From Candidatus Moranbacteria bacterium RIFCSPHIGHO2_01_FULL_55_24 (GTDB lineage Bacteria > Patescibacteriota > Minisyncoccia > Moranbacterales > UBA1568), in assembly GCA_001786575.1 (NCBI GenBank), contig MFRW01000002.1, positions 1,717 to 65,716 of the forward strand: 64,000 nt of DNA, in the 5' to 3' direction. Under the pieces are notes generated by a model. It saw nothing but the letters and a program-made list of their open reading frames with translations. It did no database searches and was not told the DNA's origin. Shown here piece by piece: positions 8,105 to 61,985 of this stretch (its first letter is position 1; each line of letters opens with the position of its first letter). The position numbers and the translations under genes are program-made.

Positions 8105-8113
8105 CGCTACCGT

Positions 8114-36860: not shown

Positions 36861-36945
36861 ACGATCCGTAAGGACATAGCTTAGACCAGTACGCTCTTTT
36901 ATGGTATGATATCCGAGTAAATCAACTGACGAACTCGGCTTTCGG

Positions 36946-37233
36946 ATGAGTTTCTGGAGGCCGAAAAGAACAAAAAATATGGAAGAATCGCAGAATGCAC
37001 GCACCGTGAAACATGATGATATCGAGATCCGCATCCTTCGTGAAAAATGCATCGGCGCGGCGACCTGCGTGGTGTATAGCCCATCCACTTTCGATTTGGA
37101 TGAGAGCAATATCGCTGTAGTGAAAGAAGGCCAATGGGATGAGCTGGAAAAGATCGTAGCTGGTGCCCAATCATGCCCGGTATTGGCAATCGAGGTATAC
37201 CAAGCTGGAAAAAAACTCTATCCAACTTCTTAA
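36946..37233 (+). CDS. Small [4Fe-4S]/[3Fe-4S] single-cluster ferredoxin
   Basis: CIGAATCV...SCPVLAIE fits the CxxAxxC...CP pattern of Pyrococcus-type ferredoxins. The start may be at the internal Met (36979). Confidence 0.6.
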   Translation: MSFWRPKRTKNMEESQNARTVKHDDIEIRILREKCIGAATCVVYSPSTFDLDESNIAVVKEGQWDELEKIVAGAQSCPVLAIEVYQAGKKLYPTS

Positions 37234-39597: not shown

Positions 39598-40623
39598 ATG
39601 AAGAAAGCTCTCATTACAGGAATTACGGGACAGGACGGTTCTTATCTTGCCGAACTTCTACTCGAGAAAGGATATGAGGTGCATGGATTGCGCCGCGCAA
39701 CATCCGTATTCAATACTGAACGGATCGAGCATCTTATAGAGAATCCGGACCTCAATTTCCATCTTCATTATGGAGATATGACTGATTCAAGTAACTTGAA
39801 CCGGCTCTTAGAGCAGATCAAGCCGGATGAGATATACAATCTGGGAGCTCAATCGCATGTCCATCTCTCTTTTCAGGTGCCGGAATATACTGCAGAAGTC
39901 GACGGTATCGGGACACTCCGTCTGCTTGATGCGATCAAAGAAACTGGTATAAAGACAAAATTCTACCAAGCCTCAACCTCTGAACTTTTTGGGAAAGTCC
40001 AGGAGACGCCGCAAAAAGAGACAACTCCTTTCTATCCGCGTTCGCCATATGGCGCTGCCAAGCTGTATGCATACTGGATTGTCGTGAATTATCGAGAGGC
40101 CTATAATCTGTTCGCTTGTAATGGGATTCTTTTCAATCATGAGTCACCGCGGCGCGGAAAGACTTTTGTGACAAGGAAGATCACTTGGGGGATTGCCAAT
40201 ATCAAGAAGGGAAAACAGGAGAAGATCGCTATCGGCAATCTCGACGCCAAGCGTGACTGGGGACATGCCAAGGATTATGTCGAGGCTATGTGGCTCATGC
40301 TCCAGCAGGAAAAGCCGGAAGATTTCGTAATCTCTACGGGTGAGATGCACACGGTCCGGGAATTCTGTGAGCACGCTTTCCGAGAAGCGGGCTATGAGCT
40401 CATTTGGGAAGGGGAAGGGATTGATGAGAAGGGCATCGATAAGGCTACCGGCAAAGTATTGATTGAAGTTGATCCGAAATACTTCCGCCCAGCGGAAGTG
40501 GACCTTTTGATAGGGGACAACTCGAAGGCCAAGAAATTGCTTGGCTGGGAGCCGAAAGTGAAATTCGAAGAGCTGGTAAAGATCATGACGAGTGCCGACC
40601 TGGAGGGGAAGACTGATTATTAG
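39598..40623 (+). CDS. gmd: GDP-mannose 4,6-dehydratase
   Basis: [30 protein letters not shown]...GDMTDSSNL...[10 protein letters not shown] is the classic GMD sequence. Confidence 0.9.
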
Positions 40624-40650
40624 GTCCCTAACTTATTTTTTTAAAAAAGT

Positions 40651-41901
40651 ATGCTGTACGAAGAAATAAAACACTGCCGGATATGCGGTAACAAAAACTT
40701 GGTTTCGGTAGTTGATCTGGGAAGCCAGGCTTTGACCGGCGTTTTCCCGGCAGCAGGAGAAACGGTTGAGGAAGGTCCGCTTGAGATGGTGAAATGCTTC
40801 AGCGAAAGCGGAGAGGATGTCTGCGGCCTCGTACAGCTCAAGCATGATTATGAGATGGAAAAACTGTATGGAGACAACTATGGCTATCGTTCAGCACTCA
40901 ATAGGTCCATGGTGGAGCACCTTCAGGGGATAGTTGCGAAAATTGAGAGGAGAGTCTCTCTTACTTCCGGAGACTTGGTAGTGGATATCGCGAGCAACGA
41001 CGGAACGCTCCTCGCTGCGTACAAGAATCACGAACTTGATTTCTTAGGCGTAGATCCGACCTCGGAAAAGTTCAAGGAATATTACCCGGATTACATCAAG
41101 CATATCCCGAAATTCTTCTCGGCCGAAGCCGTAAGAAGCCAGGCGGGAGAGAAGAAAGCAAAAGTCGTGACCTCTATTGCGATGTTCTACGATCTTCCAG
41201 AACCGCTCCGCATCATGCAGGAAATTGAAAGCATCCTGGCTGACGACGGGATCTGGGTAGTAGAACAGAGCTATATGCCGGCTATGATCGATAATGTCTC
41301 TTACGATACGATTTGCCACGAGCATCTGGAGTACTACGCGCTGAAACAGTTCGTATGGATGGCTGAACGCTCCAACCTGAAGGTCATCGATGTGGAGTTC
41401 AATGATACCAATGGTGCGAGCTTCGCTATCACTTTCGCGAAGAAGGATGCACCTTATGAAGAGGCTGCAGAGAAAGTCAGAGAAATTCTCGGGAAAGAGG
41501 TCGAGCGCGGATTTGATGCTCTCGCAATATACGAGGAATTCCGGAAGAATACCGAGAAGCATAAAGAAGATCTGGTTGAATTCTTCAAGAATGCCGCTCG
41601 AGAAGGAAAGAAAATCTTCGGATACGGGGCATCGACCAAGGGGAACGTGATACTCCAGTATTGCGGGCTTACTCCGGAAGATATGCCGTATATCGCGGAA
41701 GTGAATGAATATAAATTCGGCAGATTCGTTCCAGGCACGATGATTCCGATTATCTCGGAAAAGGAGGCTCGAGAAATGCATCCTGATTACTTCATGGTGC
41801 TCCCGTGGCACTTCAAGAAGGGGATTGTGGAAAGGGAGCAGGAATACCTGAATTCCGGAGGCCACCTCTTGTTCCCTTTGCCGAAAATCGAGGTTGTATG
41901 A
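40651..41901 (+). CDS. NDP-hexose C-methyltransferase (TylCIII/CoeE-like) with an N-terminal Cys4 zinc-binding motif
   Basis: CRICGN...C...C at the N-terminus, then a class I SAM-methyltransferase core (VVDIASNDG) and the C-methyltransferase C-terminal domain. Length is 416 aa. Confidence 0.65.
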   Translation: MLYEEIKHCRICGNKNLVSVVDLGSQALTGVFPAAGETVEEGPLEMVKCFSESGEDVCGLVQLKHDYEMEKLYGDNYGYRSALNRSMVEHLQGIVAKIERRVSLTSGDLVVDIASNDGTLLAAYKNHELDFLGVDPTSEKFKEYYPDYIKHIPKFFSAEAVRSQAGEKKAKVVTSIAMFYDLPEPLRIMQEIESILADDGIWVVEQSYMPAMIDNVSYDTICHEHLEYYALKQFVWMAERSNLKVIDVEFNDTNGASFAITFAKKDAPYEEAAEKVREILGKEVERGFDALAIYEEFRKNTEKHKEDLVEFFKNAAREGKKIFGYGASTKGNVILQYCGLTPEDMPYIAEVNEYKFGRFVPGTMIPIISEKEAREMHPDYFMVLPWHFKKGIVEREQEYLNSGGHLLFPLPKIEVV

Positions 41902-42839
41902 CAAAGACCGCTGTCATCGTGGGAGCGGGAGGGCAAGACGGGAGGATTGCAACCGAGTATCTTTTGGGGAAAGGATATCGGATTCTTGGAATTGACCAGG
42001 GGATGGTAGAGGCGAAAGGTTTGGGATGGGAAAGACCTGTCGATATCAAAGACCATGAAGCGGTAACAGAACTTCTGGAAAAGTTGCGGCCTGATGAAGT
42101 GTATTATTTAGCCGCTTTCCATCATTCTTCCGAAGACGAGTCGATCAGCGACATCGAGCTTTTCCAATCCAGTTATCAAGTGCATGTGCTATCGCTTCTT
42201 TCTTTCTTGGAAGCGATCAAGTCTGTTTCGCCAGAAACCAAACTCTTCTACGCTGCCTCGTCGCTTATCTTCGGAGATGCGGACACGGAAGTTCAGGACG
42301 AAACGATACCGTTCAGCCCCGACAGCATCTATGGGATCACCAAGCTGGATGGGCTCACGCTCTGCCGATACTACCGGAAAAAGTACGATGTGTTCGCTTC
42401 TGTGGGAATACTCTATAACCATGAATCGGAATACCGGAGCGAAAAATTCATATCGATGAAGATCGTCCAGGCAGCTATAGATATCAAGGAAGGGAAGAGA
42501 AGCGAACTCGTCGTGGGAGATTTGGAGGCAGAAGTCGATTGGGGGTATGCACGCGACTATATAGATGCTATGCATCGGATTTTGAGTGCTGACAACGCCG
42601 ATGATTTCGTCATCGCTTCCGGGCAGAAGCATTCAGTTAAGGATCTTGCTGCGGAAGCATTCAGCTCTTTGGGGTTGGATTGGCAGGAATATGTGAAAGA
42701 AGATAAGCAGATTTTGACTCGGAAGAGGAAGGCTCTCGTAGGGGATTTTGGAAAGCTCAAGAGGGTTACAGGATGGGAGCCCGCGACAGGATTCGCCGAG
42801 ATGGTCCGATTGATGATCGATTATAAGAGCCGAAAGTGA
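41898..42839 (+). CDS. GDP-4-keto-6-deoxyhexose reductase (Rmd/GMD-family SDR)
   Basis: TAVIVGAGGQDGRIATEYLL has the GxxGxxG of the GMD/Rmd family, and YGITK is the YxxxK motif. It overlaps the preceding gene by ATGA. Confidence 0.7.
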   Translation: MTKTAVIVGAGGQDGRIATEYLLGKGYRILGIDQGMVEAKGLGWERPVDIKDHEAVTELLEKLRPDEVYYLAAFHHSSEDESISDIELFQSSYQVHVLSLLSFLEAIKSVSPETKLFYAASSLIFGDADTEVQDETIPFSPDSIYGITKLDGLTLCRYYRKKYDVFASVGILYNHESEYRSEKFISMKIVQAAIDIKEGKRSELVVGDLEAEVDWGYARDYIDAMHRILSADNADDFVIASGQKHSVKDLAAEAFSSLGLDWQEYVKEDKQILTRKRKALVGDFGKLKRVTGWEPATGFAEMVRLMIDYKSRK

Positions 42840-47617: not shown

Positions 47618-50116
47618 ATGTTAAAAAAGCTTCGAATAAGTAAAGTTTTGAAATACTTCCAGGGGTCTAGAGGGATTCTCTTCGCAATTCTTCTTTTGGC
47701 ATTGGCGTTGCGGGTCTGGGGTATCGATTCGAGAGACATCTGGTATGATGAGCTTCTGACAATACAGCAATCAGAGAAAAGTATTTCGGAAATCAATGTT
47801 GATGTTCCGACGCCAATACACTATTACTTCGTCCATCTTTTCCTCTTTTTCGGTAAGAGTACCTCGGTGCTTGGGCTACCCTCGGTTATTTTCGGTCTTC
47901 TGACCGTCCTCCTTGTTTTTTTGACGGCAAAGAGGATTGCGGATGAAAGAGTCGGATTGGTCGCCGCGTTTCTCTTGGCGATTTCTCCGATGCACATCGA
48001 ATTCTCCCAGCAAATTCTTTTTTTCTCATACTTCACATTCTTTTCTTCGCTTATCCTCTATCTTGTTACCGACTTCATATTTCATTTTGAAGAAGGCAGG
48101 TTCAAATGGGGCCATCTTCTGCTTCTCGTCTTCGCGAACTGGGTGAATGTCCTGACCCAGATGCTCGCTCTTGTTCTCATCCCTGTCCAGCTGCTCTTTT
48201 TCTGCTATTTGCTCGCGAAGAACCCGAAAGTAATGCTGGTCTTCAAGAAGTACCTGGCATTAATATTGATACTGATTGCCGCGCTCTTCTCGATACTTCT
48301 GTCCATAGGGAGCGGGGGATATGCGAGTTTTCTCGAGACGCTCCACATCGGTTTCGAAAGACCGATTACGGTCGGATACTCGCTTTCTAGCCAGTTGGGG
48401 TCGACGATAGTCAGTTCCCCAATGAAACTCTTCCAGGCGATGTTTTCGTGGTTCGGAATCGGAGGAGGTATCGGGCTTCCTGTCTATGTTTGTTTCTTCT
48501 TCATAGGCTTGATTGCTTTGTTTTGGAAGAAAGTTTCCCGATCCGCTGCTTTCTTCTTTGTTCTCTGGCTTGCGGCACCGTTCGTTGTCCTTTTTTCAGT
48601 GAGGATTGAGCACTGGTTCGAGGAAAAGTATTTCATCTTCATGATTCCGGTCTATCTGATCTTTATCGCCTTAGGAATCGTCTTCTTTTCCGAATATACA
48701 GGAAGGTTGGTGAGAGAAAAAATCAGCATTTTGAAAATCAAAGGTTTTGCAGTTTTCTTTCTGGCGCTGATCTTAGTCGGCATCGCTTTCTTAGCGGTCG
48801 AACCGATCAAGAGCCGGACGGCTTTCGGATTCCCATTCGAGGGTTATGCGAAATACAACTGGAGAAAGGTCTATGATTATTTGAAGAAAAACGTGAATGA
48901 GAACGATAGAGTATTCCTCGTGAAAGGAGGATCCGATTTTTTGGACTATTACTATGCTGCCGATAAGAACGAAAGCTTATTGTTGGACGAAGAATCCATA
49001 ATGAAGCTTTCTTCGAAGGAGTACTCTCATCTTGTCGAAAACCAAGAGCAGAATTATTTCATTTCTATCCCGGATTACAACTATCTCTTTTTGAGCGATA
49101 TCACGACTTATGAAAAGATCAAGATGGTAGGGAATTTCGGGATATATAAAATACGATTCAAAAAAGAGAGTCCGGTAGAGATAAAAAGGGACGCAGCTGG
49201 CGAATGGGAATATTATGAAGACTTCCGGACGTCGCGGTATATAGGGCAGGCGCATGACTGGAAAAATAGCGCTACGACGTATTCGGATGTGCCGGGTATT
49301 CCTGAAACCGAAGGCTTCAATGAACTCGTGCCGCTCAACTCCGGAGAATCTTTCATAGATTACAAGCTCGTTCTTCCTGAAGGAACAAAGAGTTTTTACC
49401 TGAAATCAGGATTCTCGCTTGATCAGGGATCTTCATTCCAGATACTCATTGGCGAAAGCCAGGATGCGCTGCGTGTTATTTATGACCAGTCAGCCGGAGA
49501 ACTCTCTTACTTCCTCCCCGAGATGAAGATTGACTATGATACAAAGAAGTCGAAAGATCTGTTTCTGCGGATGCGTTTTAACCAGGCTCCCGGCGCTTCA
49601 GGAGAATTGAACAAGTCAGGGCTCAAATTTTTTAGCTTGAGCAGCCGCTTGTACGACGGTGTCAGATTTCCCGAAGACTATACGCCGCAAAAATCCGTTA
49701 AGGGCTCCTCCCAGGAATACCTCTATAATGCCTTTCTTGAGATAGAAAAGAGCTCAAAATGGACCCATGCTACTATTATGAGTGATGGCTGGATCCAAAC
49801 GAATGACGGATTCTTGGTAAGGATTTACGGTACCAAGGAGGCTAACCCTTTGGTATTCAAATTCGCTACGGGGGAAGAGGAACGCGATTGTGATCTCGAG
49901 ATAAAATCTTTCGCGAACCATGATAATCCATTCGAGGTGTATACAAGCCAGGATGGAAAGACTTGGGAACTTCTCAAGAAAATGAATGATAATGTATTTA
50001 AAATTGATACGTTCAGCATCAAGGATATCGCTTCAGGAGATCTCTTCCTGAAATTTACTTCCGAAAAAGAAGGAGTTTCAAGTCAGATCAGGAACATAAA
50101 GGCAATATGTAAGTGA
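47618..50116 (+). CDS. GT-C membrane glycosyltransferase (PMT/ArnT GT39/GT83-like) with a large C-terminal extracytoplasmic domain
   Basis: 832 aa. A DE motif sits in the first extracytoplasmic loop (DIWYDELLT). About 11 TM helices are followed by a roughly 450-aa beta-rich soluble domain. Confidence 0.6.
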   Translation: MLKKLRISKVLKYFQGSRGILFAILLLALALRVWGIDSRDIWYDELLTIQQSEKSISEINVDVPTPIHYYFVHLFLFFGKSTSVLGLPSVIFGLLTVLLVFLTAKRIADERVGLVAAFLLAISPMHIEFSQQILFFSYFTFFSSLILYLVTDFIFHFEEGRFKWGHLLLLVFANWVNVLTQMLALVLIPVQLLFFCYLLAKNPKVMLVFKKYLALILILIAALFSILLSIGSGGYASFLETLHIGFERPITVGYSLSSQLGSTIVSSPMKLFQAMFSWFGIGGGIGLPVYVCFFFIGLIALFWKKVSRSAAFFFVLWLAAPFVVLFSVRIEHWFEEKYFIFMIPVYLIFIALGIVFFSEYTGRLVREKISILKIKGFAVFFLALILVGIAFLAVEPIKSRTAFGFPFEGYAKYNWRKVYDYLKKNVNENDRVFLVKGGSDFLDYYYAADKNESLLLDEESIMKLSSKEYSHLVENQEQNYFISIPDYNYLFLSDITTYEKIKMVGNFGIYKIRFKKESPVEIKRDAAGEWEYYEDFRTSRYIGQAHDWKNSATTYSDVPGIPETEGFNELVPLNSGESFIDYKLVLPEGTKSFYLKSGFSLDQGSSFQILIGESQDALRVIYDQSAGELSYFLPEMKIDYDTKKSKDLFLRMRFNQAPGASGELNKSGLKFFSLSSRLYDGVRFPEDYTPQKSVKGSSQEYLYNAFLEIEKSSKWTHATIMSDGWIQTNDGFLVRIYGTKEANPLVFKFATGEEERDCDLEIKSFANHDNPFEVYTSQDGKTWELLKKMNDNVFKIDTFSIKDIASGDLFLKFTSEKEGVSSQIRNIKAICK

Positions 50117-50138: not shown

Positions 50139-50927
50139 ATGAAAACGGTAATACTATGTGGAGGAAAGGGTACACGGTTACGGGAAGAGACTGAATTTAA
50201 ACCGAAACCGATGGTAGAGATCGGCGACCTTCCTATACTGGTACATATCATGCGGTTTTATGCCGAACAGGGGTTTAACGAATTCGTTTTGTGTCTTGGG
50301 TACAAAGGGGATGTCATCAAGGATTATTTCCTTAATCTGTCGAAATTCGTAAATGATTTCCATCTTGATCTGAAGACGAACAGTATCGAATATCTCAATA
50401 ATGGGCACAACTTTGATTTCAAGATCACTTTTGTTGAAACGGGCGAGGATACGCAGAGCGGAGAACGTGTCAAAATGGCATCGAAGTATATTCCGGAAGA
50501 AGAATTCATGGTGACGTATGGGGACGGTGTGAGTGATATCGATATACGGAAACTGATACAGTTCCACAAGAAGCAGAAGCAGAAGCACGGGACAGTCACT
50601 ACGCTTTCAGCTGTGCATCCATCTTCGAAATACGGAAAGATCTATGCTGACAAAAACAATGTGCTAGAGAAATTTGACGAAAAGCCGGTGCTTGCTGACT
50701 ATATCAATGGCGGTTTCATGGTCATGGAAAAAGCGGCGCTCAAGTATATCAAGGATGGGGATATGCTGGAGGATGGTCTGCAGAAAATGACGAAGAAGCA
50801 TAAGCTTTCACAGTACTGCCATAGCGGTTTCTGGCACAGTATGGATACGATGAAAGATGTCATGGACCTCAATAAGATGTGGGAAAGCGGAAAGCGCCCT
50901 TGGGCTCTTTGGGAAACTAAGCGGTAA
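50139..50927 (+). CDS. rfbF: Glucose-1-phosphate cytidylyltransferase
   Basis: MKTVILCGGKGTRLREETEFKPKPMVEIGDLPIL...GGFMVMEK is the canonical RfbF/DdhA sequence. Confidence 0.9.
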   Translation: MKTVILCGGKGTRLREETEFKPKPMVEIGDLPILVHIMRFYAEQGFNEFVLCLGYKGDVIKDYFLNLSKFVNDFHLDLKTNSIEYLNNGHNFDFKITFVETGEDTQSGERVKMASKYIPEEEFMVTYGDGVSDIDIRKLIQFHKKQKQKHGTVTTLSAVHPSSKYGKIYADKNNVLEKFDEKPVLADYINGGFMVMEKAALKYIKDGDMLEDGLQKMTKKHKLSQYCHSGFWHSMDTMKDVMDLNKMWESGKRPWALWETKR

Positions 50928-50958
50928 TCCATTTATTTTTTCTTCATTCTTGTCTTTT

Positions 50959-52038
50959 ATGCAGCGCTTCTTCAAAGGAAAAAAAATTCTTATCACGGGA
51001 AATACCGGTTTCAAGGGTTCTTGGCTTACGGAGATATTATTACAGTGGGGTGCTGACATTGTCGGCGTTTCGCTTCCGCCAAAAACAGAACCAAACCTTT
51101 TCGCTATCCTGAATTTGGAGCAGCGGATAAAAAACTATTTTCTCGATATAAGGGATTTCGATGCCTTGAAGAAGGTGATTGCCGACGAGCGTCCGGAAAT
51201 AGTCTTTCATCTTGCGGCGCAGCCGATCGTGCGGATAAGCTATGATGATCCTCTAACGACCTATTCAACCAATGCTCTCGGTACTGCAAATGTTTTGCAG
51301 GCGATCCATGAGGTTGGGTCCGTGAGGGCAGCGGTAATCATCACTACGGACAAGGTTTATAAGAATGTCGAGTGGATATACCCGTACCGTGAAAACGACC
51401 CCTTAGGGGGGTATGATCCTTACAGCGCCAGCAAGGCGGCTGCCGATATCATTGCGCAATCGTACATACAATCTTTTTTCAATCCGAAGGACTTTGGGAA
51501 AAAGCATCAGACGCTCGTAGCTATTGCGCGCGCCGGGAACGTGATCGGAGGAGGGGATTGGGGGGAGTATAGGCTGGTTCCTGACATTGTGAGGTCGATA
51601 TATGAAAAGAATGAGAAAGTAATTATCAGGAGTCCGCGAGCTATCCGTCCCTGGGAGCATGTTCTTGAGCCGCTTGCGGGATATCTCGAGCTCGCTTCCG
51701 GTCTGTATGCCGGGAAAATCGAATATTCGGATGCCTGGAATTTCGGGCCGGACCATGAAAGTTTCATGAATGTCGAAGAGCTCGTCAAGCGGGCCACGGC
51801 GCTTTTAGCGAAAGGCACATATGAGATCCGGGAAGATAATACGAAACATGAGGCCGGAATCCTGATGCTTGATACCACCAAGGCAAAATCTTTTTTGGAT
51901 TGGTCGCCAAGATTGAGGTTTCAAGAGAATATCGACTTCACATTCAGCTGGTATAGGAACTATTACGAAAAAGCAGCGGACCCTATCGAGTTCACAGACG
52001 CACAGATCAAGTCCTTCTTCAATGATGCAAGTTCCTAA
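50959..52038 (+). CDS. rfbG: CDP-glucose 4,6-dehydratase
   Basis: KKILITGNTGFKGSWL...YSASKAAAD...RAGNVIGGGDW is the canonical RfbG/DdhB sequence. The start is set at the ATG at 50959; the ORF-track 50857 is an extension. Confidence 0.9.
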   Translation: MQRFFKGKKILITGNTGFKGSWLTEILLQWGADIVGVSLPPKTEPNLFAILNLEQRIKNYFLDIRDFDALKKVIADERPEIVFHLAAQPIVRISYDDPLTTYSTNALGTANVLQAIHEVGSVRAAVIITTDKVYKNVEWIYPYRENDPLGGYDPYSASKAAADIIAQSYIQSFFNPKDFGKKHQTLVAIARAGNVIGGGDWGEYRLVPDIVRSIYEKNEKVIIRSPRAIRPWEHVLEPLAGYLELASGLYAGKIEYSDAWNFGPDHESFMNVEELVKRATALLAKGTYEIREDNTKHEAGILMLDTTKAKSFLDWSPRLRFQENIDFTFSWYRNYYEKAADPIEFTDAQIKSFFNDASS

Positions 52039-52136
52039 GATCGGTCGAAATCGCCTCGGCCAGCTGCTGATAAAATCCAGATTAGAGCAGCCGGAACTTC
52101 CAGGTCGGACCAGAGTAAGCAACTGAAAAAGAGATT

Positions 52137-53438
52137 ATGAAAAAAGAGCTAGAAGATATCATTCGGAAAGAATACCAAGAGAGATTTCCTAAAAAAGAAT
52201 TCATTCCAGGAGAGTCTGCTGTGCCTGTTTCTGGAAAAGTTTTTGATGAACAGGAAATGATTCTCATGACCGAGGCGGTACTGGAAGGCTGGTGGACCGA
52301 GGGGCATATGACGAATGAATTTGAGCAGAAGCTTGCCGAGTATATAGGGGTGAAATTCTGCTCGACTGTCAATTCCGGCTCTTCAGCGAATCTGACGGCT
52401 TTTACCGCGTTGACCTCGCATCTCTTGGGTGAGAGGCGTATCAAGCCAGGAGATGAGGTTATTACGGTAGCAGCCGGTTTTCCTACGACTATCAACCCTA
52501 TTATCCAGAACGGCTGTGTGCCGGTGTTTTTGGATGTGGAGCTCGAGACCCTCTCGATAGATGTGAGCCAGCTTGAACAGGCATTGAGCGAGAAAACAAA
52601 GGCGGTGATGATAGCGCACACGCTCGGTAACCCGTTCGACTTGGGAGCTATCAAAGATTTTTGTGAGAAGCATAAGCTTTGGTTTGTTGAGGATAATTGC
52701 GATGGATTGGGGAGTAGATACGACGGTAAGCGCACTGGCTCTTTCGGGCATATCTCTACGGTCAGCTTTTATCCAGCGCATCATATTACGACTGCTGAAG
52801 GTGGGGCGGTATTCACTGATAATGTCGTGTTGAATAAGATTATCCGATCGGTACGCGACTGGGGACGCGATTGCTGGTGTCCAACTGGCAAAGATAACAC
52901 CTGCGGCGTCAGATTTAACTGGCAACTTGGAAAATTGCCCAAAGGCTATGATCACAAATATACGTATTCGCACCTGGGATATAACCTCAAAATGACTGAA
53001 ATTCAGGCAGCTTGCGGTTTAGCACAGCTTGAGAAGCTGGAGGGATTTGTAGAGAAGCGGAAGAAGAACTACACTTTACTGCGCGAGAAGCTTGGAAAGT
53101 TTGAGAAGTTTCTTCTCTTTACAGATCCTATCGCTAAGGCTGACCCGAGCTGGTTCGGATTCCTCATTACCGTGAAGGATGGCGCTCCGTTTACTCGTGG
53201 GGAATTGCTTGAGTACTTGAATGGTCGAAAAATCGCTACTCGGCTCCTTTTTGCTGGTAATATTACTCGGCAGCCATATTTTACGAATTCTGGTATCCGA
53301 TATCGTCAGATAGGGGAATTGAAGAATTCTGACAAGGTGATGATGGATACCTTTTGGATAGGTCTGCACCCGGGTATTACGGGAGAGATGATCGACTGGG
53401 TAGCAGACTCTTTCGAAGATTACTTTGGGAAATTATGA
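52137..53438 (+). CDS. rfbH: CDP-6-deoxy-D-xylo-4-hexulose 3-dehydrase (E1, RfbH/DdhC)
   Basis: A DegT-family fold with His replacing the PLP lysine (SFYPAHHITTAEGG), which is the hallmark of PMP-dependent E1. Length is 433 aa. Confidence 0.85.
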   Translation: MKKELEDIIRKEYQERFPKKEFIPGESAVPVSGKVFDEQEMILMTEAVLEGWWTEGHMTNEFEQKLAEYIGVKFCSTVNSGSSANLTAFTALTSHLLGERRIKPGDEVITVAAGFPTTINPIIQNGCVPVFLDVELETLSIDVSQLEQALSEKTKAVMIAHTLGNPFDLGAIKDFCEKHKLWFVEDNCDGLGSRYDGKRTGSFGHISTVSFYPAHHITTAEGGAVFTDNVVLNKIIRSVRDWGRDCWCPTGKDNTCGVRFNWQLGKLPKGYDHKYTYSHLGYNLKMTEIQAACGLAQLEKLEGFVEKRKKNYTLLREKLGKFEKFLLFTDPIAKADPSWFGFLITVKDGAPFTRGELLEYLNGRKIATRLLFAGNITRQPYFTNSGIRYRQIGELKNSDKVMMDTFWIGLHPGITGEMIDWVADSFEDYFGKL

Positions 53439-54373
53439 TTAAGACTGTCCTCATAACCGGTATTGCTGGTTTCCTCGGCAGCCATTTGGCTGAAAGATTG
53501 ATTCATGACGGATATGCTGTGGTAGGACTGAAACTTGCGGATTCTGACCTCTGGAGGCTTGAACCTTTCGCAGAGAAGTTGAAACTCTATGATGCTGATT
53601 CCAGAGATTTTGAACGTATCTTTACCGAGAATAAGATAGATTGCATCATTCATCTGGCAACATACTACACAAAAGACCACCCTTCTCCTGACGAGATGAC
53701 GCAGATGATTGATGCGAACATCAAGTCTCCTACGGAGCTCTGCGAGCTTGCGGACAATTATAACGTCAGATATTTCATCAATACTGGTACATTTTTCGAA
53801 TATAAACTCGGAAGTCCTGATCTGATACAGGAAAATGATGAGAGAAGCGCATATAACTTCTACGCTGCCACGAAAATAGCCTTTTCGGAATTGCTTAGGT
53901 TTTTTACAGAGAAGAAAGATTTAACCGCTATCGATTTCAAGCTTTTTGCGCCGTTCGGAGAGAAGGATAATGAGAAGCTCATAGTATTCTTGGTAAAGTC
54001 ATTGCTTGACGGGTCTCATGTTGAATTTTCTGGAGGGGAGCAGGCTTGGAATTTCACGTATGTAGACGACATTATCGAGGCTTATGCATGCGCGCTTAAG
54101 AGAATGGATGGCCTTGCTGAAAAGTATACCGTGCTGAACGTCGGTTCCGGATCTACTGTGACTATTCGAGAGATTGTAGAAAAGTTGGAAAAGATATCCG
54201 GGAAAAAGCTTGATATCGAGTGGGGAGCCAAGACGTACAGAGAGAATGAAATTTTCCATGTGAATTGTGACAATTCCCGATTGAAAAAAGTCCTCGGGTG
54301 GGAACAGAAATTTGATGTAGACAGCGGATTGGAGAAAACATATCGTTATTATGCGACGGCAGCTAATCTATAG
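53435..54373 (+). CDS. NAD(P)-dependent CDP-3,6-dideoxyhexose synthase/4-reductase (RfbS/RfbJ/AscF-like SDR)
   Basis: VLITGIAGFLGSHLAERL (GxxGxxG) and YAATKIA (YxxxK). It overlaps rfbH by ATGA. Length is 312 aa. Confidence 0.7.
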   Translation: MIKTVLITGIAGFLGSHLAERLIHDGYAVVGLKLADSDLWRLEPFAEKLKLYDADSRDFERIFTENKIDCIIHLATYYTKDHPSPDEMTQMIDANIKSPTELCELADNYNVRYFINTGTFFEYKLGSPDLIQENDERSAYNFYAATKIAFSELLRFFTEKKDLTAIDFKLFAPFGEKDNEKLIVFLVKSLLDGSHVEFSGGEQAWNFTYVDDIIEAYACALKRMDGLAEKYTVLNVGSGSTVTIREIVEKLEKISGKKLDIEWGAKTYRENEIFHVNCDNSRLKKVLGWEQKFDVDSGLEKTYRYYATAANL

Positions 54374-54389
54374 GAATCAATAACATATT

Positions 54390-54878
54390 TTGAGTATGGA
54401 AGAAAAAATACCAGGAGTAACGGGTAAGATGATCGAAGGGGTAGTGATAAAGAGACTTGCGAAAATTCCAGATGAGCGTGGATGCGTTTCCCATATGCTG
54501 AAGAAAGAGGATGCACATTTCAATGGCTTTGGAGAGATCTATTTTTCTAGCGTCTATCCTGGAGCGATCAAGGCTTGGCATGTTCATAAGGAAATGGAGC
54601 TGAATTACGCTGTCATATCAGGAGACATCAAATTCGCGCTCTACGATGATCGCGAGGGATCTCCGACTCGTGGTAATCTTATGGAAATTTTCATGGGAGA
54701 AAAGAATTATATCTTAGTAAAGGTTCCGGTCATGGTGTGGAACGGCTTCAAAGGTATCGGCAGTAAAGAGGCTATCGTTGCCAATTGTACGACGTTATCC
54801 CATCGTCCCGATGAGATAGAGCGTTTAGATCCATTTTCGGATAAGATTCCGTACGACTGGGAATTAAAAAACGGGTAA
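54390..54878 (+). CDS. RmlC-like cupin sugar epimerase/isomerase (possibly CDP-3,6-dideoxyhexulose 5-epimerase AscE-like)
   Basis: 162 aa. DERG and KAWHVHK correspond to the catalytic His/Lys region of the RmlC/FdtA cupin families. Confidence 0.6.
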   Translation: MSMEEKIPGVTGKMIEGVVIKRLAKIPDERGCVSHMLKKEDAHFNGFGEIYFSSVYPGAIKAWHVHKEMELNYAVISGDIKFALYDDREGSPTRGNLMEIFMGEKNYILVKVPVMVWNGFKGIGSKEAIVANCTTLSHRPDEIERLDPFSDKIPYDWELKNG

Positions 54879-54890: not shown

Positions 54891-57800
54891 ATGCGGATAA
54901 GTTTGGTTATTCCGGCGTATAATCGGGAAGCGCTCATTCGGGAGGCTATCGAGAGCGCTCTGGAGCAAACTGAAAAGATAGACGAAATCATTATCATAGA
55001 TAATGATTCGCTCGATGCTACCTTTCGGATTGCAGAGGAGTATGTGGCGAAATATGATCATATCAAGGCCTTTAGGAATGAGAAGAACATTGGAATGATC
55101 AACAACTGGAACCGAGGGATCCAGAAGGCCACTGGAGACTACGTGAGCGTGCTGCATTCTGACGACATCATTCCCAAGAACTGGTGCGAGACCGTGAAGT
55201 CAGCCATTCGGAGGAATGAGGGGAAAGATGTTGCTCTCTTTTTTGGTATTTATGCTTGTTTCCAGCGGAAGCAAGGGAAGATAGAAGTTGTCTCAAGGAT
55301 TGAAAATTTTTCTAAAGATACTTTTTTCCCAGCCGAAGAATCAGTAAAGAGGCTCTGGGAGAATTTTTATGGGAATCCGAATTGTTCCGCGGCCATAGTT
55401 TATAAGAAGTCTCTTTTTGATGAAATTGGATATTTTAACCCGGACAAAGGCGTGGAGGCGGATCAGGATTTCCACATACGGGTTCTCAATAGGTATAATT
55501 CCTATTTCATCGACCAGGAACTTTTGTATTACAGGCGCCACGAATTTCAGGGATACGATTTCAAGCAAGAGACTGAATCGGCCGAGACGAGCCTAAAGCG
55601 TCTCCTGAATGCTGTCAGCATCCAGAAGGAGAATCTGAAAGATCCAGAGCTAGTCAAATATACCTATTGTGGCGTCCTGCTCTACGCTCTCAAATTCTTG
55701 TTAACGCTCCATTTCAGCCAGGCGCTCCGCTTGTTCAAAATACCAGGTATTTTCAATCGGAAGACGCTTACGAATTTCCCGAGATTTTTTTGGATGCTCG
55801 TTTCTCGAAAATATTTCAATAAATCTTTCATACTTAAATTTAGGAAAACCAGGATTTCTCTCCTTTTCTTTCTGTTTTCCTGTCTGGTTCTGCGATCTTT
55901 GATTTTTTCAAGCTACGAGGGTATTGGACATAATTGGGATTGGGGATTCCCAGCTATGCAGCCGATGTTTGAGAGGATTAACGAGCTTTCGGAGTACTCT
56001 TGGAATGGCTTTGGCTTAGGAAAAGAGCTCAATTTACAGGCTCATTTTGCGGTTAATGAGATCATCTCTTGGTCTGGGGCGATCTTAGGTACCAAATGGG
56101 CCGTAGTATTGCTTATTTTCAGTACGTTGACTATCTCCTTTTTTTCATTCAAGCCGTTACTTGATTTCCTAAGCGGACGGAAGTCCGATCTTCACTATTT
56201 ACCGAGCGTCCTCTACGCTTTCTCGCCGTTTCTTTTCAATGAGATTATCGGTGGGTCTTGGTATATGTGGGTTTCATATGCTTTTGCCCCGGTTCTTTTC
56301 TTGAATCTGATCCGATATGTGCATTTTAGAAGATTGAAACATCTCACGGGATATTTATTGGCCACGGTTTTCGTGTTGATATCTCTGCAGAACTTCGTAG
56401 TCATCGAATCGATTGCGGCGGTATTTCTTCTTTTTAATATGATCCTTAACAGGGATCATTTGGAGAATGTCAAGGGTTTGGTCGCAGGCTATCTTTGGGC
56501 GCATCTCATTTTGTTTCTCGCTAGTCTTTATTGGATAGTCCCTTTCATCTACTCTCTCAAGACATTCTATCTGATGGTTACAAGCGTTTCCTTTACGGGC
56601 GGCTTCGAAGGCATCCGTGATATTACCCAGGGCGTGCTCGAGATATTTTCTTTGGCAGGATATTTGGATAGGAATATGTATTATCATGCTATCCCTGATG
56701 GAGCCCTTCTCCTTTTCAACATTTCTGTGGCAGCGTTTTGGGTAATGCTTTCTGCGACTTTTTTTCTCAAGCGACAGGAGGAGAAACAAAAAAAGAACGT
56801 GTTGCTCTGGTTTTCCATACTGATACTCCTGATTCTCGTTATCAAAGGAGGAAATGCTCCCTTCGGAAGCCTCACAATGTTCATCTTCCAGCATTTCCCA
56901 TTGATGTCGCTATACAGAAGTCCGCAGCATCTGATGTTTGCGGCAGCCTTTCTTGTCCCGATACTCATGGCCTTGACAATCCATTCTTTTATCCGGAGCG
57001 GATTTTCAAAAAAAACGGTAATAGTTCTTTTTCTTCTGATTATCGGCTTTTGGACAAGCGCCTGGTGGCTGAATGGTGACCTGGGCCGTGAGATATTAAG
57101 TGCCAAGAAGAAGGACCATATAGATCTCTACACCATCGCTCCGACTCTGCGAAAGATTTATGAATACAATGAGAACAGTTTTTTGGCGCATCGTATCCTC
57201 TTCCTTCCTACAGCTTTCAGTCCTGATTACTTGCCGAATGAGTATCAAAGAAAAGCCCAAGGCGGCCAGCCGGAATATTCATATCTTAAGAACCCGACTT
57301 TTAGCGCAGAGTTCAATGCTCTCGCAGGCCTTATCGATGATAAGCTCTGCTATAACGAAGAATTCGACCTCCTGAAATACCTTTCGATTACCAACACCCG
57401 ATATGTTTCGCTCCGGGAAGATATCTATCCGCACCATTCTAAATGTGGAATTTTTAAGGTTTGGGATGCGGATCATACTCGTAAGCTCATTGAAAATACA
57501 GCTGGTTTAGCGCCTGTCAACGGATTAGAGGGATTGTACTTAGTAGGGGATGAATACTTCTTGCAGCGTTTCTTCGTTCCGAAAAAAGTCGTTGTATCGG
57601 ACCGTGAGGTTGAAAATATTCCCGATATCGTTTCTACGGACGACTACGAGGTTGGTACAGCGCTCTTCCTGAAGAGTCAGAATAAAGAAAGGACTGACGT
57701 GCTGGACACAGCTAGTATCGCGCGGATATCTGGCAGAGATAAGGATCCGACGTTGGAATTTAAGAAAATAAGTCCCGTGAAATACAGGATGAGGATTCAT

Positions 57801-58385
57801 GGCGCGAAGGGCGTGTTCCCGCTCGTTTTTAATGAGAGTTTCCATGAAGGATGGAAGCTGTATCCCGGAGAATCTGATAGTGTGCTGTTTTCAGCTTCTG
57901 CAGCGGGTAGGATCGGAAATTATCATGTTATTGACGGCAATGTCGAAAATCAGGCGAGTCAAGATGAATTAGAGCGATATATCCGAAGAGGATGGGTTAC
58001 TGGTTTTGGAGAAACAAATAATATCAGTTTCGTCTCTAAGGATTTTCGAGGCGCTATCCAAAATAATAATTTACCCGATGGGGATTTCTGGGAAAACTGG
58101 TTTCGGAAAGGATCTTTGAATGGCGTCTCTGGGCATCTGGTGGTGAACGGATATGCGAATGCTTGGATTATCGATCCGGAAGAAGCATGCTCTGCGAGGG
58201 CTGCTTTCTGCAAGAAGAATCAGGATGGCACATATGATTTTGAGATTGTGGCCGAATTTTGGCCCCAGAGGCTTATGTCTCTTGGCCTAGGACTCTCGGT
58301 TGCGGGATTGGCAGTATTTCTGGTATTTTTCGGTATTGTACGGATGGTAAAAGCAGCTCGGACTGGCAAGGGGGAAGCATTGTGA
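54891..58385 (+). CDS. Giant fusion protein: N-terminal GT2 domain plus a polytopic membrane domain plus a C-terminal extracytoplasmic domain
   Basis: The first ~270 aa are GT2 (SLVIPAYNRE...IIIDNDSLD...HSDD). They are followed by about 14 TM helices and a roughly 400-aa soluble C-terminus ending in a TM anchor. Length is 1164 aa. Confidence 0.7.
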   Translation: MRISLVIPAYNREALIREAIESALEQTEKIDEIIIIDNDSLDATFRIAEEYVAKYDHIKAFRNEKNIGMINNWNRGIQKATGDYVSVLHSDDIIPKNWCETVKSAIRRNEGKDVALFFGIYACFQRKQGKIEVVSRIENFSKDTFFPAEESVKRLWENFYGNPNCSAAIVYKKSLFDEIGYFNPDKGVEADQDFHIRVLNRYNSYFIDQELLYYRRHEFQGYDFKQETESAETSLKRLLNAVSIQKENLKDPELVKYTYCGVLLYALKFLLTLHFSQALRLFKIPGIFNRKTLTNFPRFFWMLVSRKYFNKSFILKFRKTRISLLFFLFSCLVLRSLIFSSYEGIGHNWDWGFPAMQPMFERINELSEYSWNGFGLGKELNLQAHFAVNEIISWSGAILGTKWAVVLLIFSTLTISFFSFKPLLDFLSGRKSDLHYLPSVLYAFSPFLFNEIIGGSWYMWVSYAFAPVLFLNLIRYVHFRRLKHLTGYLLATVFVLISLQNFVVIESIAAVFLLFNMILNRDHLENVKGLVAGYLWAHLILFLASLYWIVPFIYSLKTFYLMVTSVSFTGGFEGIRDITQGVLEIFSLAGYLDRNMYYHAIPDGALLLFNISVAAFWVMLSATFFLKRQEEKQKKNVLLWFSILILLILVIKGGNAPFGSLTMFIFQHFPLMSLYRSPQHLMFAAAFLVPILMALTIHSFIRSGFSKKTVIVLFLLIIGFWTSAWWLNGDLGREILSAKKKDHIDLYTIAPTLRKIYEYNENSFLAHRILFLPTAFSPDYLPNEYQRKAQGGQPEYSYLKNPTFSAEFNALAGLIDDKLCYNEEFDLLKYLSITNTRYVSLREDIYPHHSKCGIFKVWDADHTRKLIENTAGLAPVNGLEGLYLVGDEYFLQRFFVPKKVVVSDREVENIPDIVSTDDYEVGTALFLKSQNKERTDVLDTASIARISGRDKDPTLEFKKISPVKYRMRIHGAKGVFPLVFNESFHEGWKLYPGESDSVLFSASAAGRIGNYHVIDGNVENQASQDELERYIRRGWVTGFGETNNISFVSKDFRGAIQNNNLPDGDFWENWFRKGSLNGVSGHLVVNGYANAWIIDPEEACSARAAFCKKNQDGTYDFEIVAEFWPQRLMSLGLGLSVAGLAVFLVFFGIVRMVKAARTGKGEAL

Positions 58386-58462: not shown

Positions 58463-59449
58463 ATGTATAATGCTTTTTTTAAAAAAAACTACCAGTACAT
58501 ATTTATTTTTTTTGTTTTTCTATTGGTACTTTTTAACCATTATTTTATTATTCCCAGCGAGACAGAGGAGGTAAAGAGTGAGAAGGGGATTCCTTCTGAA
58601 ATTCCATTTTTGGATAATAAGGATACAGAAAAGGCGTACAAAAATATCTTGCAGTCAAAACAAGGGGATGTTTTTAGGGTAGGGTTCTTCGTAAAAGCCG
58701 ATCATGATCAGGTTCTCGAGGTGTTCTTGGAGTCTGCTCTCAATGAAAAGTTGAAGGTGGGTGAAATCGCAGTCAGTGATTCTGGCGAGTGGGAATATAA
58801 AGAGCTGGTTTTTGTCACTCCTGATCGCTATGATTCTCTTGCGATAAGCCTGAAGCAAGGAGAGTTGATTTCTAGAAAATGGGACAACAAAGTCGTATAT
58901 CTTGAGTCTTTCCTCATAACTCGGATAGATATTGATAAGTCACGGATCGCGACCCTTTCTCCGACCATATCTGATGTATCAGGCATAGAGCGTGCGAGGC
59001 TTGAGGATATCGGAGGAGCTTATCTCTATACCTACTCATACCAGAATAAAGAGATCGATTATCAGAATTTGTTTGACTCAAGCGGGACGGTCCATTTCGA
59101 TGATGACGATAGAATCGTTGTCGGGGAGGGTAAGAGGAGTGAGTTTTTTACATATAAATTTGATACGTTTTATCCCTTTGAGAAGTTTGTGTTTCAGGCA
59201 GTTCAAGATGGGAAATCATCAAAAGAACTTCATCTGGAGTATTCTTTCGATAATTCCTTTTGGAGGGAGATAAGCTATGCTCAAGAAAAGGGCGATCATC
59301 AAGAATTCTTCTTAACTATCCACGGCAACCAGAAAGAGAAGACGGTCTATATTCGGACGACTTATGACGGTGATGAGAAGAAAAAGAAAACTTTTGGTCT
59401 AGCTGAATTTTCGGTAATGGCGACTATTCAGAAAGCGCCTAAAAATTAG
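58463..59449 (+). CDS. Hypothetical signal-anchored protein
   Basis: An N-terminal TM/signal anchor, then a soluble domain with a Lys-rich tail. No family recognised. Confidence 0.4.
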   Translation: MYNAFFKKNYQYIFIFFVFLLVLFNHYFIIPSETEEVKSEKGIPSEIPFLDNKDTEKAYKNILQSKQGDVFRVGFFVKADHDQVLEVFLESALNEKLKVGEIAVSDSGEWEYKELVFVTPDRYDSLAISLKQGELISRKWDNKVVYLESFLITRIDIDKSRIATLSPTISDVSGIERARLEDIGGAYLYTYSYQNKEIDYQNLFDSSGTVHFDDDDRIVVGEGKRSEFFTYKFDTFYPFEKFVFQAVQDGKSSKELHLEYSFDNSFWREISYAQEKGDHQEFFLTIHGNQKEKTVYIRTTYDGDEKKKKTFGLAEFSVMATIQKAPKN

Positions 59450-61641
59450 TGAGCTTACTATCTATGGGATTGAAGGGCTTTTTGCAAGCGTGTAGATGGG
59501 AAATAGGAGGGCTTCTCTTGCTCCTGTTCTGCGTATGCATAAACCTTTTTCCGTCAGGCTACATCATCCTTGGCGGGGATGTGCTTCAAGCTCTCAACCT
59601 CTCGGAAAATTTCAAGTATTTCTATTACGAAGACTGGTTCCGTCAGTCTTTTCTCTTTTATGGGATTTTCTATTTTCTGGATATGCTCGGTGTGAGCGAT
59701 ACGGGACAATTGTCATGGTATTTGGGAATATTTTTAGTCGGATCATATCTTTCCTTTTTGGCCTTTTGTTCGCTCTTGTTTCCAAAATCACCGAAAGTGG
59801 CCAGAGTTTTAGGGGCGTTATTCTATGCCACAAATATCTATACGCTCTATATTTTTACTGCTACTTGGGGATACATCTCCTATCAGACGCTTTATATCTT
59901 TATTCCAGCGCTGGTCGGTTTATATATAAAGGTTCTCGAAACGAAACAGCCTCTTTTCGTAGTACTTTTCTTTTTGGCGGCATTTCTCGCTTCCATAGGC
60001 TTCAGTAATCCGGCATTTGCACTGGGTCTGGGAATATTTTTCTTCATCCTCACGCTACTGCTTTTTTTCACAGGATTCATATCATTTGACTGGCGAGCAG
60101 TCAGCAGGATAACACTCCTTATTTTAGGATCAGTATTGCTCAATGCCTATTGGATACTGCCAGTTATTCCGCAATTGCGAGGCGGTATAGAAGGCGTGTA
60201 TGCATCCGAATTTGTGGATTTGAAGGAGAGGCTTGAAAAGACCTCGAATGCCATATTCGATACTATCCGGCTCATGCCGACAAGTGAGCAAAATCGTTAT
60301 TATCCCTCTAATTTCCCTTACCCCAACATCTCTTGGATGGAAGATGGTATTTTGCTTCTCGCTTTCGTGCCGTTTTTCGTTGTTTTATTCGGGTTTATCT
60401 TGAGAAAGGAAAAGAGGGAATGGGTACTCTATACAATATTCTTGGCGCTCTTTACGGTCTTTGTCGCGCTGGTAGCGCGAATACGTTTTCCATTCGATGC
60501 TATGAACAGTTTCCTTTTCCAGCTTCCCGGATTCAATACACTAAGGGGGTACGATAAGCTTGCGACTTTTACCCCGTTTCTCTTAAGCGCACTTCTCTTT
60601 CTAGCTCTTCTTTCTCTGCAGGGAAAGAGATACTATCGGACTGCGATGATCGGATTTTTCGTTGTGATAGTGGTCTTAGCTTTGCCGTTTTATGTTGGCG
60701 GAATACAGACTAAGTTGAGTTATATCCTTTCTGGCCAGAAAGAGAAAGATTTTCGGACGGCGAAGCAGAGTGCTCTTGTGAAGGTGCCGGAAGCGTACTA
60801 TGACGTTAAGCCTCTTCTGCAGGAAGCTCGGGATGACAGCAAGATTGCCATGTTGCCATTCTCGCCAGGATCCAGCGTAGGAAGAGTGAATTTCCCAGCC
60901 TGGAAGGTGAATGGGCCCAATATTGTGAAGGATCTCTACGGAAAGAGGTTTATCGAACTTTATGAGTACTCTATACCTGGTTGGATGTTCGCTCAAGATT
61001 TTGAGAACACTCGTTACGATCCGGAATGGATAGTCGACCTGTATGGGCTTCTTGGAACGAAATATATCTTCTACCACAAAGATGCTAAGAAGAAGGCTCT
61101 TGAGGAAATGGAGGATTCTCGTAGATATTTGGAAAACGTCGGCGCTTTGCGGCTGGTGCGTGATACCGAATCTTTTTACCTCTACACTCTGGAAGAGAAC
61201 CGAGTTGTTCCTTATGTCTATACATCCCCGAGCGCCCTCGTTCTTGATCCGACCCCTGAAGGGCTTTCTCGAGCAGTCAGTGATTTTCGGAATCGAATCT
61301 CGTCCCCGGAATATCACCGCAAGAATCCGAAAGAGCTACAAGTGGAGATTCCGGATACCCTTGGAATCGGTTCGGAAATCTTTTTGAATGAAAAGTACGA
61401 TCCTCTCTGGGTCGCAGAATATGTCTCTCTGCAAGGGGAACACATCAGGATAGAAAGAGATACCTCGGTAAAGTATGCGAATGCATGGAAGACGGATCGG
61501 GTTGTGGCTGGTGAGGATATAGAAATTTATTATCTGCCGTTCAAATTTTTCCGTATCGGTCTAGTCTTATCAGGATTGACATTATTGGTTGTCGTTTTTG
61601 GCATGGTTTGGGTGCTTCGGAAAAAGGGTGATAATGTATAA
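59449..61641 (+). CDS. Large polytopic membrane protein with a C-terminal extracytoplasmic domain (GT-C-like or polymerase-like)
   Basis: 730 aa with about 12 TM helices in the N-terminal 420 aa, then a soluble domain and a final TM helix. The start overlaps the upstream stop. Confidence 0.5.
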   Translation: MSLLSMGLKGFLQACRWEIGGLLLLLFCVCINLFPSGYIILGGDVLQALNLSENFKYFYYEDWFRQSFLFYGIFYFLDMLGVSDTGQLSWYLGIFLVGSYLSFLAFCSLLFPKSPKVARVLGALFYATNIYTLYIFTATWGYISYQTLYIFIPALVGLYIKVLETKQPLFVVLFFLAAFLASIGFSNPAFALGLGIFFFILTLLLFFTGFISFDWRAVSRITLLILGSVLLNAYWILPVIPQLRGGIEGVYASEFVDLKERLEKTSNAIFDTIRLMPTSEQNRYYPSNFPYPNISWMEDGILLLAFVPFFVVLFGFILRKEKREWVLYTIFLALFTVFVALVARIRFPFDAMNSFLFQLPGFNTLRGYDKLATFTPFLLSALLFLALLSLQGKRYYRTAMIGFFVVIVVLALPFYVGGIQTKLSYILSGQKEKDFRTAKQSALVKVPEAYYDVKPLLQEARDDSKIAMLPFSPGSSVGRVNFPAWKVNGPNIVKDLYGKRFIELYEYSIPGWMFAQDFENTRYDPEWIVDLYGLLGTKYIFYHKDAKKKALEEMEDSRRYLENVGALRLVRDTESFYLYTLEENRVVPYVYTSPSALVLDPTPEGLSRAVSDFRNRISSPEYHRKNPKELQVEIPDTLGIGSEIFLNEKYDPLWVAEYVSLQGEHIRIERDTSVKYANAWKTDRVVAGEDIEIYYLPFKFFRIGLVLSGLTLLVVVFGMVWVLRKKGDNV

Positions 61642-61646
61642 AATAT

Positions 61647-61985
61647 ATGGCTATGAATGACGAAAAAAAGCTAGACATGAAAAAGCTTGTTTTAGAAAGA
61701 AAAGCGGATGTCATCTGTCTGTTGCTTGGAGTCGCTTTAGGCATATACTTTGACTGGAGTATCGTTGAGATTATCATTTTTCTTGTCTTTATCTGGTCGA
61801 TCCTCTGGTCGATCCCGAGCCGTTTTCTCGTCGGTCCAGCGATATTCTTTCTTGCTCTTACCCCGCTACTTCTCATGCTTGATCGGAAGGAACGCGCGGA
61901 AGAATTCGCTATCTACACTTACTATTTCCTCGCTATGGCGGTAATCCGGGGAATCATAGAGGTTCGGAAGGAAAAAACGGACTAG
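61647..61985 (+). CDS. Small membrane protein (GtrA-like size/topology)
   Basis: 112 aa with 3-4 TM helices. It is the last gene of the low-GC island. Confidence 0.35.
   Translation: MAMNDEKKLDMKKLVLERKADVICLLLGVALGIYFDWSIVEIIIFLVFIWSILWSIPSRFLVGPAIFFLALTPLLLMLDRKERAEEFAIYTYYFLAMAVIRGIIEVRKEKTD

Follow-up and report, generated by a model that had tools for sequence, protein, structure and literature searches.

Gene content of the locus

The 64-kb window analysed here (the whole stretch of DNA under study) belongs to Candidatus Moranbacteria bacterium RIFCSPHIGHO2_01_FULL_55_24, a metagenome-assembled genome (MAG) of the candidate phyla radiation (CPR; Patescibacteria) from groundwater of the Rifle aquifer, and carries between positions 50139 and 54878 five contiguous genes of the kind expected for a cytidine diphosphate (CDP)-activated 3,6-dideoxyhexose. 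A preliminary description of this DNA had read these genes as a pathway of the asc/ddh type lacking its E3 reductase, and coordinates, family profiles and matches to structures in the Protein Data Bank (PDB) confirm that the five lie side by side. All are open reading frames (ORFs) on the + strand, with gaps of 22–98 nt and, at the one junction where genes overlap (the third and fourth), a 4-nt overlap. The window proteins are identical to GenBank OGI22341–OGI22344, and each look-up found the same protein sequences on 8–10 contigs that had been assembled independently from several samples; the module is thus no assembly artefact.

The first gene (50139–50927) encodes a glucose-1-phosphate cytidylyltransferase of 262 aa (DdhA/RfbF/AscA-like; TIGR02623, PF00483), for which TIGR02623 is the best NCBIfam family, with 273.7 bits over the full length and 99 bits for the next family. 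Homologues of this protein adjoin the 3-dehydrase gene in 53 of the 80 loci of the census described below. The second gene (50959–52038) encodes a CDP-glucose 4,6-dehydratase of 359 aa (DdhB/RfbG/AscB-like) that scores 463.5 bits with TIGR02622 against a cutoff of 278; its start is placed at 50959 by the gene callers on the independently assembled contigs, while the maximal ORF begins at 50857.

The third gene (52137–53438) encodes E1, the pyridoxamine 5'-phosphate (PMP)/[2Fe-2S] CDP-4-keto-6-deoxyglucose 3-dehydrase (DdhC/RfbH/AscC), of 433 aa. It is followed by an extended short-chain dehydrogenase/reductase (SDR) acting on nucleoside diphosphate (NDP)-sugars (53435–54373, 312 aa; PF01370), a candidate C4 ketoreductase with an AscF/RfbS-like role, and by a divergent RmlC-fold (cupin) protein (54396–54878, 160 aa, or 149 aa in the GenBank call; PF00908), a candidate C5 epimerase with an AscE-like role. 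On the 269-kb scaffold_70 (L089, 173–1390) E1 was called at 405 rather than 433 aa, which reflects either another choice of start or a difference between samples in the 5' sequence.

E1 is an Fe-S type 3-dehydrase

The assignment of E1 (OGI22342.1, already named RfbH in GenBank) is carried by several lines of evidence. It scores 692.4 bits with the RfbH family NF011936 (cutoff 423) and, over residues 4–431, is 56 % identical (E = 3e-167) to the crystallised E1 of Yersinia pseudotuberculosis (PDB 3bcx). The motif SFYPAHHITTAEGG is present, and H215 (within SFYPAHHIT) aligns with the Yersinia catalytic H220, a position marked by the H220K crystal variant 3bb8; the Lys-to-His replacement proposed for this enzyme is thereby borne out. 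Further, C188, C246, C248 and C256 align with Yersinia C193, C251, C253 and C261 in the spacing C-X57-C-X1-C-X7-C, the latter numbers being those reported for the [2Fe-2S] ligands by Agnihotri et al. (2004). All four cluster cysteines are thus aligned, as a true 3-dehydrase should have them, and from the alignment E1 is a genuine enzyme of the Fe-S type. For the four-cysteine motif, a review of nucleotide-sugar dehydratases in the Journal of Biological Chemistry (PMC8987622) cites Agnihotri et al. (2004).

The redox-independent 3-dehydratases of the ColD type fit this protein poorly. Matches to ColD structures reach only ~1e-49; moreover, the cluster cysteines are present and the neighbouring genes encode CDP-glucose enzymes.

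The SDR and the RmlC-fold protein

The last two proteins are less easily named than the first three. The SDR scores 119 bits with PF01370 and has no specific NCBIfam match, and its relatives in the databases bear generic names only; its nearest relatives among the census loci (105–150 bits) mostly lie within ~2 kb of E1, many of them immediately adjacent. The RmlC-fold protein has no NCBIfam match and scores 34.2 bits with PF00908 (cutoff 27), against 246.6 bits for the canonical RmlC that the window encodes at 4232–4843. When aligned to that RmlC it keeps the conserved His and has Ala at the position of the catalytic Tyr. Its closest solved structure is PDB 3ejk (1e-33), whose deposited name is only 'dTDP sugar isomerase'. 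The family is very large (all but 2 of 8000 scored candidates had E ≤ 1e-5). Patescibacteria account for several of the few top matches that bear a name, and both the SDR and the RmlC-fold families are plentiful in that group.

Three other loci hold the same five-gene set (NTP-transferase, SDR, RmlC-fold protein, 4,6-dehydratase and E1): L091, from a Thermoanaerobacteraceae MAG; L093, from a further MAG; and L094, a Dictyoglomus-like contig. The proteins of L091 and L093 are 34–57 % identical to those of the window, and the Cys motif of E1 is the same in both; L094 was judged by Pfam domains and by the identity of P0242, an SDR homologue in the equivalent position. SDR orthologues (34–45 % identity) are paired with an RmlC-fold gene in L091, L092 and L093, and in five-gene modules with E1 the two genes are a conserved pair. 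Such synteny makes specificity for CDP-sugars the more likely for both proteins and speaks against the reading in which they would be dTDP-specific. In addition, the window holds a complete rmlC/B/D/A set (4232–8905), so that the divergent pair is not needed for dTDP-rhamnose. The established chemistry of the asc pathway would lead to CDP-ascarylose or its C4 epimer, provided that the RmlC-fold protein acts as a 5-epimerase and the SDR as a 4-reductase; the stereochemistry of the product is a prediction, and so is the specificity of these two enzymes for CDP-sugars. The composition that had been likened to asc/ddh operons holds as far as a route from CDP-glucose through CDP-4-keto-6-deoxyglucose to E1, joined by a reductase and an RmlC-fold enzyme, while the label 'ascarylose/paratose-type' is unproven.

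E3 is absent from the locus, as from most E1 loci

The window and 10 kb past each of its ends (84 kb in total) were examined for E3. No protein with Fer2, FAD_binding_6 or NAD_binding_1 occurs among the window genes (Pfam, all plausible genes), and a hidden Markov model (HMM) of the FNR family, built from the E3 genes of Aeromonas and Corallincola loci, had no match, even with the limit set at E ≤ 10, in the window translated in six frames or in the two 10-kb extensions. The Aeromonas E3 used for the model (L010) was itself confirmed by Pfam as Fer2 + FAD_binding_6 + NAD_binding_1. The preliminary description was thus right that E3 is missing from the cluster. The related modules L091, L093 and L094 also have no Fer2, FAD_binding_6 or NAD_binding_1 in the called genes within 7–9 kb, and in L091 and L093, the two that were scanned, the E3 HMM found no match. 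In L093 (8551–10134) and L094 (11516–13096) E1 has an N-terminal extension of ~90 aa, for a total of 526–527 aa; the idea that this might be a fused ferredoxin was rejected, as it has no Cys motif.

To place this absence we turned to E1 relatives in other species. A scan with one genome per species gave at least 555 of them, and the census comprises the best 80 (51–60 % identity), each viewed with 10 kb per side of E1; in 46 of the 80 loci at least 9 kb were available on both sides. The source species itself does not figure among the 80. The hosts are Chloroflexota, Acidobacteriota, Planctomycetota, Verrucomicrobiota, Firmicutes, Actinobacteria, Elusimicrobiota, Armatimonadota, Melainabacteria, two Patescibacteria, a Methanoregula archaeon, Proteobacteria and Bacteroidota. 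The genomic context, which had been thought unusual for such a pathway, is not so: E1 orthologues occur in many phyla, the CPR and a methanogen included.

Nor is the missing E3 remarkable. An FNR-family (E3-like) gene lies within 10 kb of E1 in 14 of the 80 loci, all from Proteobacteria, Bacteroidota or Bdellovibrio-like predators, and 66 loci are without one; where both flanks are full, the gene is present in 10 and absent from 36 of the 46. The two Patescibacteria loci (L063 and L072) have no E3 within 10 kb. The catalytic His and the four Cys are kept in all 80 E1s, whether a reductase is nearby or not. Outside Proteobacteria and Bacteroidota, then, E1 usually stands without E3 beside it.

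Three reductase architectures were seen in the four E3-linked loci (of the 14) that were sampled by Pfam. One is Fer2–FAD–NAD, the classical E3; another is FAD–NAD–Fer2, as in a Flavobacterium locus (L047, 6146–7186), with relatives of 342–358 aa in five other Bacteroidota loci; and the last is an FNR-like module without Fer2, placed immediately after E1 (L078, 11297–12019) or ~2 kb downstream (L048, 11293–11979). Because such non-classical forms are found near E1 in other species, we suggest that the reductase of E1 has been recruited more than once.

When the ORFs of all loci, the 80 of the census included, were clustered, no electron-transfer family was recurrently linked to E3-less E1. Recurrent neighbours, judged by sequence reading, resemble split transketolase, aldolase with acetaldehyde dehydrogenase, NeuB/KdsC-like proteins, SDRs, glycosyltransferases and flippases. 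The commonest non-core neighbour is a thiamine-pyrophosphate enzyme of ~600 aa (Pfam-confirmed; 29 of 80 loci, e.g. L044, 12932–14752), often accompanied, again by sequence reading, by split transketolase-like or aldolase/acetaldehyde dehydrogenase-like genes. We take this enzyme to resemble YerE of the yersiniose pathway, in which case many E1 loci would make branched-chain sugars. ORFs with a plant-type 2Fe-2S or CxxCxxCxxxCP motif were also sought up to 6 kb from E1; this yielded five longer matches in E3-less loci, all of which on reading were Cys-rich non-coding ORFs; the reading covered these five, the shorter matches being of 49–77 aa. Separately, two large Fe-S proteins lie near E1 in L025.

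The ferredoxin and its radical-SAM neighbour

A ferredoxin does lie at 36946–37233 (+ strand), as had been described; its description is corrected to a mono-cluster protein of the Fer4_13/Fer4_15 kind (33.7 and 33.5 bits, respectively) with three Cys (CxxAxxC...CP). Its stop is 12 nt upstream of the likely start of a B12-binding radical S-adenosylmethionine (SAM) enzyme (a 592-aa ORF at 37173/37245–38951), for which no family scores better than HpnJ, whose 144 bits fall far short of the cutoff. Radical-SAM enzymes require a one-electron donor, and because of this the parsimonious, and more likely, role of the ferredoxin is to serve the adjacent B12-radical-SAM enzyme. The occurrence of this pair among glycan genes suggests that a sugar or lipid undergoes a radical methylation or rearrangement. 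No homologue of the ferredoxin was found by phmmer in any other E1 locus examined, and the link between it and E1 that had been raised is thus without comparative support.

Setting in a glycan island

The module stands inside a glycan island that occupies ~32–62 kb of the window and has a GC content of 0.40–0.52, compared with 0.53–0.60 in the upstream 32 kb, which points either to horizontal acquisition or to other compositional constraints. The last 2 kb of the window have a GC content of 0.55, and GC skew is strongly positive along the island (32000–62000). Besides the module the island encodes Gmd, a TylCIII-like C-methyltransferase, an Rmd-like SDR, glycosyltransferases and methyltransferases. 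At 39598–42839 Gmd (GDP-mannose 4,6-dehydratase), the TylCIII-like NDP-hexose C-methyltransferase (Methyltransf_13/14) and the Gmd/Rmd-like SDR stand in series and may provide a route to a C-methylated GDP-6-deoxyhexose.

Large membrane proteins are encoded around the five genes, among them a PMT_2/ArnT-like protein of 832 aa (47618–50116) and a protein of 1164 aa (54891–58385) in which a family 2 glycosyltransferase (GT2) is joined to a long multi-pass domain. Three ORFs of 328, 725–730 and 112 aa, without a Pfam match, follow at 58463–61985, and two further PMT-family genes lie just past the end of the window. Long – strand ORFs (196–420 aa) were seen opposite E1 (52082–52973) and opposite the GT2/ferredoxin region (35847–37109); they are probably artefacts, and the two opposite E1 are ignored by the gene callers.

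The canonical dTDP-L-rhamnose set consists of rmlC (4232–4843), rmlB (4847–5851), rmlD (5923–6849) and rmlA (8114–8905). Of these, rmlD and rmlA are separated by a serine hydroxymethyltransferase gene (6815–8104), and after rmlA comes another NTP-transferase gene (8924–9805).

Proposed pathway and its alternatives

Considering the gene content, the intact E1 and the census together, we think it probable that the five genes form a functional module for a CDP-activated 3,6-dideoxyhexose within a CPR surface-glycan island, and that E1 draws its electrons from an unlinked, general reductase system. In such a pathway the DdhA-like enzyme would produce CDP-glucose and the DdhB-like enzyme CDP-4-keto-6-deoxyglucose, from which E1, with PMP and its own [2Fe-2S] cluster, would remove the C3 hydroxyl at the cost of two electrons per turnover. 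The RmlC-fold protein and the SDR would then set C5 and C4, most likely to give an L-configured, ascarylose-type sugar, and the neighbouring glycosyltransferases would use it. As for the electron donor of E1, we infer that it is most likely a general ferredoxin or flavodoxin reductase system encoded apart from the module, by analogy with SpnQ, a related 3-dehydrase for which ferredoxin/ferredoxin reductase or flavodoxin/flavodoxin reductase pairs replace E3 (PMC8987622); this precedent and the census are our reasons for favouring a general cellular source.

Several points weigh against this proposal. The cytidylyltransferase scores below the curated cutoff of TIGR02623 (273.7 against 300.25 bits). 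The RmlC-fold protein, judged by its sequence, is a marginal member of PF00908 in which the catalytic Tyr is not aligned, and FdtA (PF05523) is a further match for some homologues; for these reasons its epimerase activity is a guess. The census is biased to the 80 E1s nearest the query, with only 10 kb viewed on each side, and the search for E3 spanned only ~84 kb, so that an E3 elsewhere in the genome is possible. Finally, no sugar in the glycan of a CPR bacterium is known from experiment.

Were a true E3 (Fer2–FAD–NAD) encoded elsewhere in the Moranbacteria genome, the system would be a classical E1/E3 pair with an unlinked reductase gene. Given that only ~84 kb of the genome were covered, that FNR-family reductases are common in bacteria, and that linkage is loose in six Bacteroidota loci, where the reductase lies 2.8–8.8 kb from E1, this explanation deserves to be taken seriously; we nevertheless regard it as unlikely, considering that 66 loci, those of the two Patescibacteria included, have no E3 within 10 kb and that the module is found without one, within 7–9 kb, in L091, L093 and L094 by Pfam, and in L091 and L093 by the E3 HMM also. 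A dedicated donor closer at hand would be the island ferredoxin, standing in for the Fe-S domain of E3. It is the sole Fe-S electron carrier of the glycan island, and the related SpnQ can use a ferredoxin (PMC8987622), but its gene stands 15 kb upstream of E1 and abuts that for a B12-radical-SAM enzyme, a class itself in need of a reductant, and it lacks homologues in the other E1 loci examined with phmmer. A role as the reductant of E1 is thus possible, speculative and unsupported, and we consider it improbable that the ferredoxin is dedicated to this enzyme.

The need for electrons might also be avoided altogether if E1 were a ColD-like redox-neutral dehydratase or an aminotransferase, in which case the product would not be a classical CDP-3,6-dideoxyhexose. 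No reductase gene is nearby, and SpnQ shows aminotransferase activity in the absence of a reductase (PMC8987622); E1, however, has no transaminase activity under such conditions according to the same review. Moreover, the four Fe-S cysteines are kept in this E1 and in those of all 66 loci without E3, a retention that argues for selection on electron transfer, and the match to the Yersinia E1 (3e-167) far exceeds that to ColD (~1e-49). We therefore hold a non-reductive E1 to be very improbable, and return to a reductive E1 served by a general, unlinked electron source.

Taken jointly with the census, these considerations lead us to suggest, tentatively, that Fe-S E1s normally work without a dedicated E3, that E3 is a proteobacterial and Bacteroidota specialisation, repeatedly recruited, and that a CPR bacterium puts an ascarylose-type sugar on its surface. 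If this is true, the surface of a CPR bacterium would bear a 3,6-dideoxy-L-hexose of the ascarylose type, made with electrons from a housekeeping or island ferredoxin, and an organism with a minimal redox repertoire would still make a 3,6-dideoxy sugar. Display of 3,6-dideoxyhexoses by CPR bacteria could have a bearing on host attachment.

By itself the locus matters little: its genes are recognisable, its E1 is already called RfbH in GenBank and E1 commonly has no E3 linked to it. Of wider use, if modest, is that E1 orthologues with an intact Fe-S motif extend across many phyla, mostly without a nearby E3. In a survey from 2020 (PMC7725333) the sugars tyvelose, paratose and abequose are called rare, with Salmonella and Yersinia as their primary sources. 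Since intact E1 genes are widespread, surveys may under-call CDP-3,6-dideoxyhexose pathways if their rules demand the classical pathway with E3.

Comparison with known systems

The five-gene modules of L091, L093 and L094 differ from that of the window in gene order, the SDR and RmlC-fold genes there being placed between the transferase and the dehydratase. The flagellar glycosylation island of Clostridium butyricum resembles the window in having rfbF, rfbG and rfbH without a linked E3.

The best-known counterpart is the asc/ddh system for CDP-ascarylose of Y. pseudotuberculosis (AscA–F; DdhDABC with AscE and AscF). The module has homologues of AscA, AscB and AscC, and downstream of these the RmlC-fold protein and the SDR hold the positions of AscE and AscF, for whose roles they are candidates; unlike AscE, the RmlC-fold protein falls in the functionally unassigned 3ejk subfamily. 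In contrast to the Yersinia system, there is no AscD/DdhD in the 84 kb, nor a leading ddhD in the gene order. The host differs too. CPR bacteria are not known to have lipopolysaccharide, so that the predicted sugar could not serve an O-antigen.

Two further enzymes bear on how E1 may work. ColD, the GDP-4-keto-6-deoxymannose 3-dehydratase of the colitose pathway, has the fold and the Lys-to-His replacement in common with the E1 of the window and needs no reductase; ColD, however, lacks an Fe-S cluster and uses glutamate to restore PMP, whereas E1 retains the four cluster cysteines. SpnQ, the TDP-4-keto-2,6-dideoxyglucose 3-dehydrase of the forosamine pathway to spinosyn, uses PMP and a [2Fe-2S] cluster and has His in place of Lys, as does the E1 described here; that both E1 and SpnQ hold a [2Fe-2S] cluster is stated in the review cited above (PMC8987622). 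The substrate of SpnQ is a TDP-2,6-dideoxy sugar, and the E1 of the window is much nearer to the CDP-type E1 (3e-167) than to the deposited NDP-4-keto-6-deoxyglucose 3-dehydratase 9wvy (~2e-44). SpnQ needs no dedicated E3 and is the best functional precedent for the module.

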